A stretch of 64,000 nt of DNA from Dictyostelium discoideum (Eukaryota). A program made the position numbers and the translations under genes. Below the pieces are notes generated by a model. That model was given only the letters and a program-made list of their open reading frames with translations. It was not told the origin of the DNA and made no database searches. Shown here in pieces: positions 24,876-51,567 of the stretch (positions within the stretch are counted from its first letter, which is position 1; each line of letters opens with the position of its first letter). Location of the stretch: assembly GCA_000004695.1 (NCBI GenBank), contig CM000153.2, positions 5,056,001 to 5,120,000 of the forward strand, in the 5' to 3' direction.

Positions 24876-25002
<127 letters not shown>

Positions 25003-25039: not shown

Positions 25040-25962
25040 TTACATTCTAATGAAAACTGGTTTCAATTCACCTTGTCTCTTTTTTAATAAATTAACTAAT
25101 GATTGATCAATTTGTGGTGGAAGATTACTACTTTGTTCACCTGGAGGTATGTTATGGAGAAGGGTCATAATTTCTTTATCGATTTTAGAGATCTTTCTGA
25201 ATGGCCATTTTCTACCTCTTGCAGCTTCTTTCCATCTTTTACTCAAGGTTGAAGTTGGTATACCTAATTTCTTTGCAGCTTCACTTTGTGGGAAATTTAA
25301 ATATTCTGTAATCTCTATATAGGTTGGATTGGCTTCTGTTAATGATCTATTTTCTGTTGTAACTAATGCATTTGATGCTGATGGAACTGTATTTTGTCCT
25401 GTAATTGATGCTATAATATTTCCATTATTATTATTGTTATTATTATCACCACGTGGAGAACTTTCTTCATCATCACTACCATCACTATTATAATTATTAT
25501 TATTATTGTTGTTATTGAAATTATCGTTGTTATATCCATCATTCATATTATCATTATTATTATTATTATTATTACTATTATTATTATTATTACTATTACT
25601 ATTATTATTATTTCCATTATTATTACTATTATTACCATTATTATTGTTACCATTATTGTTATTGTTATTATTGTGGTGATTATTATTGCTATTATTACTA
25701 TTGTTATTATTCAAACTATTAGAATTTGAATCATTTGTTCTTAAAGTTATATTGGCGGGTGTTACTTCTCTGATATCAGGGTCAGATTCTCTATCATATG
25801 GTGTCGCAGCTGGTGCATTCATATAATGTTGTAAGTGTAAAGGGATTCTATCCTTTGTTAGTGACAATGGTCTACTATATGGTGAACCATGTGAAAAATG
25901 TGGATTGGTTGATGGACTATATACATGTGGTGATGAATTATTGCTGTTATTACTATTGTGAT

Positions 25963-25994
<32 letters not shown>

Positions 25995-26644
25995 CTATTA
26001 TTATTGTTATTATTATAATTATTGCTGTTATTATTGCTGCTATTATTATTATTATTACTATTATTATTATTATTACTATTACTATTATTATTATTATTGC
26101 TATTGTTATTGCCATTGCTATTGCTATTGCTATTGCTATTGCTATTGCTATTGCTATTGCTATTGCTATTGCTATTGCTATTGCTATTGCTATTGCTATT
26201 GCTATTGCTATTGCTATTGCTATTGCTATGGTTACTATTATTATTATTATTGCTATTGCTATGGTTATTATTATGGTTATTGTTGCCATGGTTGTTGTTA
26301 TTGTTACTATTATTGCTATTATTATGGTTGTGGTTATTATTGTTATTGTTGTTGTTGTTTCCATTGTTGTTACTGTTGCTGTTGTTGTTGTTGTTGTTGT
26401 TGTTGCTGCTGTTGTTGTTGTGGGTGGCACTCATTACATTTTGAGGTGATGGTAAATTGGGGGAACTATTACCTCCATTGCTATTAACATTTCCATTGGC
26501 ATTGTTGCTATTGTTGCTATTATTATTATTTACATTGCTGCTGTTATTGTTATTATTATGGTTTAAAATTGAATTTGCAGGAAAATCAAAATCTAATTGT
26601 GGATGGGTTGGTAATCTTGGTTGCTGACTTGAAAGATGTGACAT
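25040..26644 (-). CDS. RWP-RK domain protein, a putative transcription factor, with very long poly-Asn/Ser/His tracts.
   Basis: 534-aa ORF. The C-terminus reads ITEYLNFPQSEAAKKLGIPTSTLSKRWKEAARGRKWPFRK, which is the RWP-RK signature. Upstream there is low-complexity N/S/H-rich sequence, including a (GCTATT)n run coding an (NS)n tract. Confidence 0.7.
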
Positions 26645-27930: not shown

Positions 27931-28629
<699 letters not shown>

Positions 28630-28965: not shown

Positions 28966-29130
28966 ATTAAATTTTAATCTTGGGATTTCGGAATGTTTTG
29001 GGAAATTTTATTTTATTTATTTTTTTTTCAAAACAATTTTAAAAACATCCAAATTTGACACTTAAAATAAAAAAAAAAAATTTTAATCTTGGGATTTCTG
29101 AATATTTTGTGAAACTTTATTTATATAATA
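28966..29130. promoter_or_regulatory. Two copies of a roughly 50-bp direct repeat, each containing a heat-shock-element-like alternating TTC/GAA array. They lie 350-500 bp upstream of the polyubiquitin start codon.
   Basis: Copy 1 is ttaatcttgggatTTCggAATgtTTTggGAAattttattt at about 28966-29020. Copy 2 is ttaatcttgggatTTCtgAATatTTTgtGAAactttattt at about 29082-29130. Both show the 5-bp periodicity of nTTCnnGAAnnTTCnnGAAn. Confidence 0.4.
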
Positions 29131-29304
29131 TTATTTTTTTTTTAAAATGGTCTAATTTTATTTTTTATGGATTTAATTTATAAAAATAGAACACAAAATG
29201 ATTTTAAATTCTTAATATTCAGTTTTTTTTTTTTTTTTTTAAGATCATTCTAGATTATTCTAGATTTCTCTAGATTTTTATAGATTTCACTATTATTATT
29301 TTTA

Positions 29305-29337
<33 letters not shown>

Positions 29338-29447
29338 TCATTTTAACTATTTATTAAAAAAAAAAAAAAAAAAAATAGTTTTGAATTGATTTCTAAGATT
29401 TTTTTTATTTATTTTTTTTTTTTTTTATTTATTTTTTTTTTTTTTTT

Positions 29448-30301
29448 TTAATAAGCAGTATTTGTGAATCTACCTCTATTATAATGAATATTATAATCAA
29501 TTTTAATATTTAATTCATGAGCAACTTGATAAGTGAAATGTGGATTTCTTAAGAATGGTCTTGCTAAAAATACTAAATCAGCACGATCTTGTTGAAGAAT
29601 TTCTTCAATTTCTTTACCAGAATTAATTAAACCAACGCAAGCAACAGATAATTTAGAGGTAGCCTTTTTAACGGCATGAGCCAATGGTACTTGATAGCAT
29701 GGACCAATGGTGATTGATTGAGACATTGAATTGCCACCAGAGGAGCAATCGAATACGTCGACATCCATAGTCTCCAAAATCTTTGCAACTCTAATTGTGT
29801 CATCTAATGTCCAACCACCTTCACACCATTCCTCACATGATAAACGCACACCCAATGCTTTCTCAACTGGCCAAACTGAACGAATTGCTCTAACAATATC
29901 AAATAAGAATCTGCATCTATCCTCAAATGAACCACAACCATATTGATCAGTACGTTTATTTGAAGTTGGTGAAAGGAATTGATTAATTAAATAACCATGA
30001 GCACCATGAATTTCAATGAAATCAAATCCTGCTTTTTCGCATCTCTCTGCTGCCAATCTAAATGAATCAATCACTTCCTTAATATCATCCAATGTCATCT
30101 CAATTGGTACTGACATATTCTCATTAAATGCAATTGGTGATGGTCCATAAGTTTTCCAACCTTTACCATCTTCACTTTCTGGAATTGAAAATCTAGCATT
30201 ATCCAAAAATGGTGGATTTGATGATGCTTTTCTACCTGCATGTGCTAATTGAATACCAGCATACTAATAAATCATTAATATATATATTAATAAATGATTA
30301 A

Positions 30302-30344
<43 letters not shown>

Positions 30345-30613
30345 TATTATAATGTATATAATACATACTGAATTATATAAATGAATATTATCAGTAATTC
30401 TTTTCATTGGTGCAATATGTTCATCTTTGTAAACACCTGCATCTGCATATGAAATTCTACCATTTGCTAATGTTGCAGCAGCTTCAAATACTATTAATGA
30501 AGCACCACCTCTAGCATAACTGGTATAATGACCAAGATGGAAATCATTCATAAAACCATCTTCTGAGCTATACATACCTAGGTAAAAATTAAAAAATAAA
30601 AAATATTAATAAA

Positions 30614-30712
<99 letters not shown>

Positions 30713-30911
30713 TTAATTAATAAAATTACTTACACATTGGAGAAACAACAGTTCTATTTTTTAATGTCATATTTTTAATAGTAATTGATGTAAATGTTTT
30801 TGGTACTTCGACATTTGATGATGAATCTGGTGTTGTTGTAACTGATGGAAAACCTGGACCTTTATAGGTTGATGGAAGGGTATAGAGATCATTTGGTTTA
30901 TATTCTTGCAT
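29448..30911 (-). CDS. NADH:flavin oxidoreductase of the Old Yellow Enzyme family, YqjM/NamA-like class. Exons on the minus strand are 30734..30911, 30369..30577 and 29448..30263.
   Basis: Exon 1 reads ...TIKNMTLKNRTVVSPMC and ends at a GTAAGT donor. Exon 2 reads (C)MYSSEDGFMNDFHLGHYTSYARGGASLIVFEAAATLANGRIS...IHLYNS and ends at a GTATGT donor. Exon 3 reads YAGIQLAHAGRKASS...[26 protein letters not shown].... The splice phases close and give 400 codons. Both introns are built on (AAT)n. Confidence 0.8.
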
Positions 30912-31832
30912 TTTTTTTTATCAATATTTATTTCAATATTTTATATATTTCTTTTTTTATTTTTAGAAATGTTGTTTTTAAAAAATAAAAATAAAAAAAA
31001 AAAAAAAACTTTATTTTATATTCAATAAAAAAAAAAAAATATGAGTGTTAACGAACTTTTTTTTTTTTTTACTTCTTTTTTGTTTAAACCATTCTCTGTT
31101 TTCTTTTTTTTTTTTTTTTTTTTTTTTTCAATTCTCGATACAATTTAAATTACTCTCAAAAAATTTGATTTTTGAGTCAATCATTTATTCCAAAGGCATT
31201 TATGTAAATTTCGGTGTGATCGTCTTCGAAGAATAAAATTATTAAAAAAAAAAAAAAAATCTTTTCCGGGCTGATTTTTTTTTTTTACAAAATGACAAAA
31301 ATTCTAAAACTAAAATTTAAAAAGAACACTCAAAGGAAACCTAAAATTTCAAATACAATTCTTTTTTTTTTTTTTTTTATTTTTTTTTTTTTTTTTTTAT
31401 TATTTGTTTATTGTTATTTTTATTGTTGTTTTTTTTTTTTATTTTTTTTTATTTTTTTTTTTTATTTTTTCTTTGATATTTTACAAATACATTTTTTTAA
31501 ATCCAAAAAATAAAAATTATTAATAGAAATGTATTTGTAAAGGGGTGGTATTTGGAAAAAATCCAATATAAATTTAAGTTTTAGTTTTTTTTTTTTTTTT
31601 TTTTTGAAAAGGCAATGAAATAATTTTATTTTAATGCCAAAAGCAGTATATTTTGGGCAATTTCCATACAACATCAATTTTTTTTTTATTTTTATTATTA
31701 TAATAAATCTATTTCATTGATGTTCAAACCAATTTTTTATTGGCTTTTTTCCTTTTTTATTTTTTTTTCAATTTTAAACCCATTTCAATATTTTCAATAA
31801 AATTCTGCAATTACCCCCCCATTTAATTACAA

Positions 31833-31878
<46 letters not shown>

Positions 31879-32131
31879 CACAAAAAAAAAAAAGCACAAA
31901 AAAAAAAAAGAAAATTGAAATAAATTATTATTTAATATTTAATTCTATCAAATGTTTGTTTTAATTAAAACTATATTAAAAAAAAAAAATGGCTTGTAAA
32001 AATTTTTCATTAGGTAAATAATTAAAATTTATTTTTATTTCATATAATATAAATGAAGGTTTTTTTTTTTTTAAAACTAATTAATTATAAACTATATAGA
32101 AAGAGATGCTTTAAATTTGTGTGAAGGTGCT

Positions 32132-33064
32132 ATGAAGGGTAAACCAATTCAAGAACTTAAACCAGAAGAAGCTAGAAATAACTTTGTAAAGATTCAATCT
32201 GGTGATGTTTACAAGTATCCATGTAATATTGAAGATATTAAAATGGATTTGGGTGGTGAATTAGGATCGGTTAATGTCAGAGTATTGACACCACCAAATG
32301 CCAAAGAATCCAAAAACAAATTGCCAGCAATTCATTACTCTCATGGTGGTGGTTGGGTCATGGGTGATCATGTAACTCATGATAAACTAATCCGTGAAAT
32401 TTGTTACCGTACCAATTCTTTGGTGATCTTCACTGAATATAGTAGACCACCAGAAGTCAAATATCCAATCCAAAACGAACAATGCTATGCAGTGATTTTG
32501 AAATTCATAAAGGATGCTGCTAAATGGAATATCGATCTCAACAATTTCTCATTGGTTGGCGATAGTGCCGGTGGTAATATGGCTATTGTGTTGGGGTTGA
32601 TGGCAAAAGTTAGAAATGGACCTTCGTTCAAGAGAATTTGTCTCTACTATCCAGCCATTGATAGCGGTATGAATTCAGGTTCCTATAAAGAATTCCATAA
32701 TGATTTCTATCTTACTAAAGATGGTATGAAATGGTTCTGGGATGCATACACCAACAGTCCAAAAGACACCAATGAAATCTACTGCTCTCCTTCCAAATGC
32801 AAAGAATCTGATGTCATGGGTTTCCCAGAAACAATGATCATCAATGGTGAAGCTGATGTCCTCCGTGATGAAGGTGAAAATTTCGCTAGACTATTACGTA
32901 AAGCAAATGTTCCAGTAACTCACCTAAGAATTCAAGCAATGGTTCATGATTTCGTTGCTCTAAACTGTCTTGATCAATCAAAAGCATGTAGAGTTGCAAT
33001 GGATTCCTCAATTGATTTCTTAAATAAATCTCATGATCCAAATGCAACTAAACCAAAATGTTGA
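32132..33064 (+). CDS. Alpha/beta-hydrolase fold-3 esterase/lipase of the HSL / arylacetamide-deacetylase family.
   Basis: The oxyanion-hole motif HGGGW is present. The nucleophile elbow is GDSAGG. The catalytic Asp and His region is GEADVLRDEG...HDF. The ORF-track start at 32117 is TTG and the first ATG is at 32132. Confidence 0.75.
   Translation: MKGKPIQELKPEEARNNFVKIQSGDVYKYPCNIEDIKMDLGGELGSVNVRVLTPPNAKESKNKLPAIHYSHGGGWVMGDHVTHDKLIREICYRTNSLVIFTEYSRPPEVKYPIQNEQCYAVILKFIKDAAKWNIDLNNFSLVGDSAGGNMAIVLGLMAKVRNGPSFKRICLYYPAIDSGMNSGSYKEFHNDFYLTKDGMKWFWDAYTNSPKDTNEIYCSPSKCKESDVMGFPETMIINGEADVLRDEGENFARLLRKANVPVTHLRIQAMVHDFVALNCLDQSKACRVAMDSSIDFLNKSHDPNATKPKC

Positions 33065-35514: not shown

Positions 35515-51567
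<16,053 letters not shown>

Follow-up and report, generated by a model that had tools for sequence, protein, structure and literature searches.

Was a gene of Dictyostelium discoideum that encodes an Old Yellow Enzyme (OYE) of bacterial appearance acquired by the social amoebae from bacteria, and were its introns born from trinucleotide repeats? The question is raised by a locus at positions 29448–30911, minus strand, of a 64,000-nucleotide stretch of the genome (GenBank assembly GCA_000004695.1, contig CM000153.2, positions 5,056,001 to 5,120,000 of the forward strand; the window hereafter), for which an earlier sequence-only reading had proposed both. We consider it very probable that the gene, Q54L37, is a YqjM-like ene-reductase gene with vertical descent within the Amoebozoa and with ordinary introns in which microsatellites expanded later. 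It is an ordinary, already annotated gene that had been read correctly, and both evolutionary claims are unsupported.

Gene model, family and predicted structure

The listing of open reading frames (ORFs), together with a reading of positions 29000–31400, gives a gene of three exons and two GT-AG introns, with three minus-strand ORF pieces whose translations are successive stretches of one OYE. Exon 1 (30734–30911, 178 nt) starts with the ATG at 30911–30909, and encodes a 36-residue N-terminal extension of the eukaryotic type, followed by the first part of the barrel as far as the SPMC motif. Intron 1 (30578–30733, 156 nt, GTAAGT...CCTAG) is inserted in phase 1 inside the Cys60 codon of this motif. 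Exon 2 (30369–30577, 209 nt) encodes the stretch MYSSEDG...NIHLYNS, and is followed by intron 2 (30264–30368, 105 nt, GTATGT...TTAG) in phase 0. Exon 3 (29448–30263, 816 nt including the TAA stop at 29450–29448) encodes YAGIQLAHAGRKA, the catalytic motif HGAHGY and, near the C-terminus, a putative Arg finger. The GC content amounts to 31–35% in the exons, 3% and 6% in introns 1 and 2, and 23% in the whole window. Retention of either intron leads to an immediate in-frame stop, with the ORFs finishing at SPMCK-stop and LMIY-stop and a TAA present in intron 1. The spliced coding sequence of 1203 nt encodes 400 amino acids with a single terminal stop, and its product is identical, residue for residue, to XP_637466.1/EAL63959.1/UniProt Q54L37 of D. 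discoideum, publicly named 'NADH:flavin oxidoreductase/NADH oxidase domain-containing protein'. The motif named in the sequence-only reading is found in the protein (SPMCMYSSEDGFMNDFHLGHY), and its gene coordinates and exon–intron model agree with this annotation; gene, model and family assignment are already in the public databases.

On its profile match, the protein is a member of the OYE family. Residues 40–381 align to positions 3–340 of the 342 positions of the Pfam profile PF00724 (Oxidored_FMN), with an E-value of 5e-76 and 256.7 bits (cutoff 27). The best solved relative by sequence is YqjM (PDB code 1Z41; E = 1e-84), with CaOYE, Thermus TsER, XenA and the thermophilic-like enzymes of fungi as the next matches. 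The E-values of YqjM, CaOYE, TsER and XenA range from 1e-84 to 1e-72. Classical OYEs (OYE1, OPR1/3, PETNR) belong to the same Pfam family and have the flavin mononucleotide (FMN)/TIM-barrel chemistry in common with the window protein, but are far more distant, with values of ~1e-29 to 1e-34 for PETNR, OPR1 and OYE2.6 and alignments that are often only partial.

All 11 checked YqjM positions involved in FMN binding, substrate binding or catalysis are kept (C60, Y62, A92, Q134, K141, H215, H218, Y220, R269, R368 and R392). C60 and Y62 correspond to Cys26 and Tyr28 of YqjM within the SPMCxY motif, H215 and H218 to His164 and His167, Y220 to Tyr169, and K141 to Lys109. Cys26 and Tyr28 are the class-defining residues of YqjM-like OYEs and are absent from the classical OYEs, which use a His/Asn pair (PMC3915301). 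The window protein, unlike the latter, has the His/His pair H215/H218. R392 aligns with the Arg336 finger of YqjM, and may likewise contribute to the active site of the neighbouring subunit. The YqjM/NamA-type assignment proposed in the sequence-only reading is thus borne out by the match to YqjM, by the retention of every signature residue and by the fold match described below. Its description of a GxSPMCQYSA-type motif as that of classical OYEs is wrong: SPMCQYS is the commonest form in the YqjM class, and occurs in our alignment in bacterial NamA, in fungal YqjM-like proteins and in most dictyostelid paralogues.

Two further features were noted in the alignment. In the R392 column, Arg is kept in 8 of the 21 amoebozoan family members, with F, M, Y, H, P, W or A in the others; judged by this column, amoebozoan paralogues may differ in active-site architecture or oligomerisation. 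At residue C239 (in QYGCGSFEDR), a single additional Cys separates the two glycines of the YGGS motif, which are otherwise invariant. Within the alignment this insertion is confined to the window protein and the D. cf. discoideum orthologue (97% identity), and every other aligned homologue has YG-GS.

The AlphaFold model, computed on an alignment of 48 sequences, reaches a predicted local distance difference test (pLDDT) value of 93.7 and a predicted template-modelling (pTM) score of 0.93. The model superposes on CaOYE, TsER and YqjM with root mean square deviation values of 1.1–1.6 Å (1.6 Å for YqjM itself), and its top 50 Foldseek matches are all YqjM-type. The fungal structures of AnOYE8, BfOYE4 and the P. 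steckii enzyme align to the model over 386–402 columns, and the bacterial structures over 357–361; the additional ~30–40 columns imply that the fungal structures match the N-terminal extension too. The fungal OYE structures also give the highest query-normalised TM-scores (0.88–0.90) and the longest structural alignments.

The likeness to YqjM (Bacillus subtilis NamA, the class prototype) extends over the whole barrel at ~44% identity, and includes the SPMCMYSS motif, the His/His pair, the Tyr proton donor, the equivalents of Lys109 and Arg336, and the fold. By contrast, YqjM is devoid of the 36-residue N-terminal extension, and also of the insertion of ~19 residues (SSNPPFLDNARFSIPESEDGKGWK) by which AHAGRKA is followed in the window protein and in most other members of the class. 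The window gene is, moreover, eukaryotic and intron-containing, and its product stays below the NCBIfam equivalog cutoff for NamA: NF010047, 'NADPH dehydrogenase NamA', is the best-matching model, with a score of 377.5 bits against a cutoff of 431.

By homology with these relatives, the protein would be an FMN-dependent, NAD(P)H-linked ene-reductase, one of several D. discoideum paralogues. The FMN is predicted to lie at the C-terminal mouth of the (β/α)8 barrel, where it would be reduced by NAD(P)H in the standard ping-pong cycle of OYEs. The electron-withdrawing group of an activated alkene (an enone, enal, maleimide, quinone or nitro compound) would be hydrogen-bonded by His215 and His218, with transfer of a hydride from flavin N5 to the β-carbon and of a proton from Tyr220 to the α-carbon. 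The physiological role is likely the detoxification of reactive electrophiles. The amoebozoan YqjM-type enzymes, which are biochemically uncharacterised, are possible candidates for mesophilic biocatalysts. A literature search found no paper on Dictyostelium OYEs; the 'flavin oxidoreductase' of the Mastigamoeba genome paper was discarded as an unrelated enzyme of the thioredoxin system.

Descent of the gene and the question of horizontal transfer

The first match in the protein search is the D. cf. discoideum orthologue, with 97% identity. In each dictyostelid group covered by the sample (Cavenderia, D. purpureum, D. firmibasis, Polysphondylium, Acytostelium, Heterostelium and Tieghemostelium), these enzymes are encoded by a multigene family. 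After the dictyostelids, NamA proteins of Bacteroidota (~54%) and proteins of Coemansia fungi (~51%) follow at similar identity. Other amoebozoan homologues were found in Acanthamoeba castellanii, Luapelamoeba, Dermamoeba, Ceratiomyxa, Clastostelium and Synstelium, the last being a dictyostelid. The fungal homologues belong to five phyla (Chytridiomycota, Mucoromycota, Zoopagomycota, Ascomycota and Basidiomycota), and include proteins from Smittium, Brettanomyces, Phellopilus, Rhodosporidiobolus, Kickxellales and Neoconidiobolus, as well as from Umbelopsis, Exophiala, Dactylellina, Ascodesmis, Hypoxylon, Saitoella, Nowakowskiella and Fusarium. The wide distribution of YqjM-like OYEs among fungi was already described in 2014 (PMC3915301), and the label 'bacterial-class' is therefore outdated; as eukaryotic members of the class have been described for so long, the present one carries little weight as a discovery.

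Among the bacteria, the closest sequences are NamA proteins of Bacteroidota and Acidobacteriota (Mucilaginibacter, Segetibacter, Vicinamibacterales), the best matches being those of Mucilaginibacter and Chitinophagaceae (51–54% identity). They share the insertion after AHAGRKA and the Arg at the finger position with the window protein, have an N-terminal extension of 0–1 residues, and make up a clade of their own, apart from the eukaryotes, in the labelled-taxon trees. Outside the Amoebozoa, the group that lies nearest in the trees is that of the fungal thermophilic-like OYEs, represented by AnOYE8 (7QFX), BfOYE4 (7BLF), AfOYE1 (8J59) and the P. steckii ene-reductase (8S4P), with 38–40% identity to the window protein. 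These eukaryotic YqjM-like enzymes, assigned to 'Class II' by Nizam et al. (2014) and to 'Class III' by later schemes, comprise ~390–440 residues and have, as does the window protein, a long N-terminal loop, which has been described at the dimer surface (PMC8954901). AnOYE8 and BfOYE4 carry a Trp finger (PMC8954901), whereas the window protein has R392 at this position, as in the bacterial-type Arg finger.

The N-terminal extension measures 0–1 residues in bacteria, and has a median length of 34 residues in Amoebozoa and 42 in Fungi. In dictyostelids it contains a motif conserved among paralogues (EF-x-YP...P-x-NY-x-x-G), and residues 11–20 are modelled with a pLDDT of ~89. There is no detectable sequence similarity between the fungal extensions and that of the window protein: a profile of the dictyostelid extension scored the fungal extensions no higher than shuffled controls, with a best score of 4.1 that was equalled or exceeded in 52 of 3650 shuffles. 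The extension was dropped as a sequence-level synapomorphy after this shuffle test, and the evidence that it provides is limited to its presence, length and structural coverage.

Trees were built by bootstrapped neighbour-joining, with distance methods only (Kimura, scoredist, Poisson and Dayhoff-6). A tree of all 241 retrieved proteins shows the order dictyostelids, other Amoebozoa, fungi and bacteria, with deep bootstrap values of ~0% because of the many unlabelled or rogue sequences, and was superseded by focused trees of labelled taxa. In the labelled-taxon tree, rooted on YqjM, Amoebozoa (46%) and Fungi (33%) are each monophyletic and the bacteria are separate. Amoebozoa and Fungi group together at 74% (scoredist); in the focused trees from which rogue taxa and ambiguous intermediates had been taken out, the same grouping reaches 91–97%. 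Internal nodes fit the species tree, as seen for Acanthamoeba with Luapelamoeba (90%) and Ceratiomyxa with Clastostelium (89%). The first non-dictyostelid group joined by the window lineage consists of other Amoebozoa in 66–71% of bootstraps, of fungi in 28–31%, and of bacteria in at most 1%; in ~99% of bootstraps this first neighbour is thus eukaryotic. A phylogeny had been proposed as a check in the sequence-only reading, with placement in a eukaryotic clade as the outcome that would speak for vertical descent; the protein lands in such a clade. Splits of Amoebozoa with bacteria and of Fungi with bacteria were discarded as tests of horizontal gene transfer (HGT) in favour of this nearest-neighbour test, because in an unrooted tree of three groups they are merely the complements of fungal and amoebozoan monophyly.

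Vertical descent within the Amoebozoa is well supported by these data. One origin with the fungal YqjM-like OYEs is most likely, as the best-supported but not a secure arrangement. Several points weigh against this overall picture. Support for the deep nodes is moderate and depends on the method: the grouping of Amoebozoa with Fungi falls to 57% with Poisson distances, 34% with Dayhoff-6 recoding and 32% with slow columns, and to ~0–7% with unlabelled or rogue sequences in the data set. Long-branch attraction may have drawn the faster-evolving eukaryotic lineages together, given that nearly equal identities were obtained for Bacteroidota NamA (54%) and fungi (~51%). Homology between the dictyostelid and fungal extensions is statistically not demonstrable from their sequences. 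With respect to function, the score below the NamA cutoff means that the protein is not a strict NamA equivalog, and its cofactor, substrate and oligomeric state are assigned by homology.

Beyond vertical descent within the Amoebozoa, the ultimate source of the gene can be proposed only tentatively. A possible scenario is one very old acquisition from a soil bacterium by the common ancestor of Amoebozoa and Fungi, followed by gain of the extension. The donor may have had a NamA of the Bacteroidota, Acidobacteriota or Chloroflexota-like type, and the gained loop may be a eukaryote-specific dimer-interface loop. If this is true, the gene would be a rare shared marker of the ancestor of Amoebozoa and Fungi.

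Somewhat less probable, and in our judgement unlikely, is an ancient bacterial transfer into the amoebozoan stem with one or more separate transfers into Fungi, such that the eukaryotic sequences are not one clade. The drop of the common grouping to 32–34% under recoding and slow-site filtering is consistent with separate transfers, as is the failure of the dictyostelid extension profile to match fungal extensions significantly. In the same direction, Coemansia is closer to soil bacteria (55–59%) than to dictyostelids (~51%), and none of the ~30 labelled eukaryotic sequences comes from outside Amoebozoa and Fungi. Against this, the first non-amoebozoan group joined is fungal in 86–89% of bootstraps and bacterial in ~9%, and in every design with labelled taxa only or with a clean outgroup the best tree groups Amoebozoa with Fungi, at 74–97%. 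An extension of similar length is, furthermore, present in both groups and in no bacterium, and in the model it is covered by the fungal crystal structures.

The transfer proposed in the sequence-only reading, in which a bacterial YqjM/NamA gene moved into the dictyostelid lineage itself (for example, from soil Bacteroidota) and acquired introns later, is highly improbable. The YqjM class is predominantly bacterial, and by raw identity the bacterial matches (51–54%) equal or exceed those of non-dictyostelid eukaryotes. Homologues of the same architecture, however, occur across non-dictyostelid Amoebozoa and Fungi, one intron is common to deep-branching dictyostelids and paralogues, and the composition of the exons is typical of the host. 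In the focused trees a group of dictyostelids with bacteria appears in 0% of replicates and one of Amoebozoa with bacteria in 0–1%, and the bacteria are almost never the first neighbour. A dictyostelid-specific transfer is thus effectively excluded, and the gene is not borne out as a candidate for HGT in social amoebae. The case illustrates that a 'bacterial-class' active-site motif and high bacterial BLAST identity do not amount to HGT when the class spans related eukaryotes. The list of HGT candidates in the 2005 genome paper reportedly does not include an OYE.

The annotation of one Cavenderia fasciculata paralogue (P0032, 578 residues) joins an isochorismatase-family domain (PF00857) to the OYE domain, which may reflect either a true fusion or the merging of gene models.

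Introns and their AAT/ATT microsatellites

The exon–intron structures of orthologues and paralogues were recovered by exact protein-to-genome threading. The window gene and the orthologues of D. cf. discoideum, a second D. discoideum strain, D. citrinum and D. firmibasis all have intron 2 at one alignment column and in one phase, and its placement is identical in the genes of Cavenderia, Polysphondylium and Acytostelium and in a D. discoideum paralogue of 55% identity. A position shared so widely implies that this intron predates both the dictyostelid radiation and a gene duplication. Its repeat content is variable: the five members of the D. discoideum complex have (AAT)13, (AAT)24, (ATA)6, no repeat and (TTA)6, the intron of D. 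citrinum being non-repeat sequence. No repeats are present in Cavenderia, Polysphondylium and Acytostelium, and the copy of the paralogue has no AAT-type run.

Intron 1 occupies a single position and phase in all five orthologues of the D. discoideum complex. In the window it measures 156 nt with 33 ATT units, in the second D. discoideum strain (P0125) 88 nt with 5 units, in D. citrinum 71 nt with 3 units, and in D. firmibasis and D. cf. discoideum 68 and 64 nt, respectively, with 0 units. Across these orthologues the splice sites are kept and the flanking intron sequence is recognisably homologous. The tract of the window gene spans positions 30614–30712, reading (AAT)33 on the forward strand and (ATT)33 on the coding strand, and that of intron 2 spans 30306–30344, reading (ATT)13 and (AAT)13; the two introns thus carry their coding-strand repeats in opposite orientation. 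The perfect runs account for 99 of the 156 nt of intron 1 (63%) and for 39 of the 105 nt of intron 2 (37%), so that the description of the intron bodies as almost pure (AAT)n was an overstatement.

Because the positions are conserved and the repeat number is polymorphic, the tracts are to be seen as hypervariable microsatellites inside pre-existing, normally short introns. They are fast-evolving, expanded within older introns, and typical of an AT-rich genome. Although 63% and 37% of the respective introns are repeat sequence in this strain, their birth from trinucleotide-repeat expansion, with the (AAT)n tracts as the origin of the introns, is extremely improbable, given that intron 1 exists at 64–88 nt with 0–5 units in four orthologues with unchanged splice sites and flanks, that the intron 2 copies of Cavenderia, Polysphondylium, Acytostelium, D. 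citrinum and the paralogue consist of non-repeat sequence, with codon and phase unchanged, and that the repeat orientation differs both between the introns and between D. firmibasis and D. discoideum. The claim of intron gain made in the sequence-only reading is accordingly not sustained by same-site, same-phase introns with few or no repeats. Repeat-filled introns in Dictyostelium call for similar caution, as they reflect microsatellite instability in ordinary introns and not the birth of introns.

The window contains 33 perfect (AAT)n or (ATT)n runs of at least 6 units, which reach up to 42 units and total 2.1% of its length; four of them have at least 33 units. AAT has also been reported as a dominant and polymorphic trinucleotide simple sequence repeat in the sister species D. 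giganteum (PMC13487327). Further long perfect runs are (ATT)42 at 24877–25002, (AAT)39 at 38731–38847 and (AAT)39 at 44380–44496, and some of the long runs fall within long ORFs, where AAT would encode poly-Asn. With 0 to 33 units among close strains, the (ATT)n tract of intron 1 would be a good marker for strain typing.

A separate observation concerns D. purpureum P0003 (L002 6001–7489), in which two of the four annotated introns are found at a distance of 8 and 12 codons from the sites of introns 1 and 2, with the phases unchanged. The offsets could be due to intron sliding, to an error in the gene model or to non-orthology; P0003 clusters in the tree with another paralogue, P0004.

Neighbouring genes and other features of the window

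The OYE gene is flanked by an abhydrolase_3 gene (32117–33064, plus strand) and a polyubiquitin gene (27931–28620, minus strand). Members of the D. discoideum complex have this gene order in common; D. purpureum and Cavenderia do not show it. No second OYE paralogue lies within the 64-kb window, and no Rfam match was obtained anywhere in it.

The spacer between the 3' end of the OYE gene and the 5' end of the polyubiquitin gene contains, at 29235–29295, several more or less tandem octamers resembling TCTAGATT and AATCTAGA, which were recognised by eye and are partly conserved among D. discoideum strains; the repeat search of the window did not report short spacer repeats of the AATCTAGA type. 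The octamers could be a promoter or terminator element.

The polyubiquitin gene encodes three head-to-tail ubiquitin units and a terminal Leu. The syntenic genes encode 381 residues (5 units) in D. cf. discoideum, 305 residues (4 units) in D. citrinum and 153 residues (2 units) in another D. discoideum strain, showing that the copy number of the ubiquitin unit varies between close strains.

Two further ORFs of the window have a biased composition. The ORF at 25040–26644 (minus strand, 534 residues) consists mostly of poly-Asn/Ser low-complexity sequence, with a C-terminal segment (...RWKEAARGRKWPFRKI...) that we take to resemble a DNA-binding motif of the RWP-RK type. The ORF at 36913–51567 (plus strand) runs uninterrupted over 4884 residues and is rich in homopolymers; the syntenic gene of D. 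cf. discoideum is annotated with 5342 residues, and the C-terminus of the ORF may be a HECT ubiquitin-ligase domain, which it resembles.

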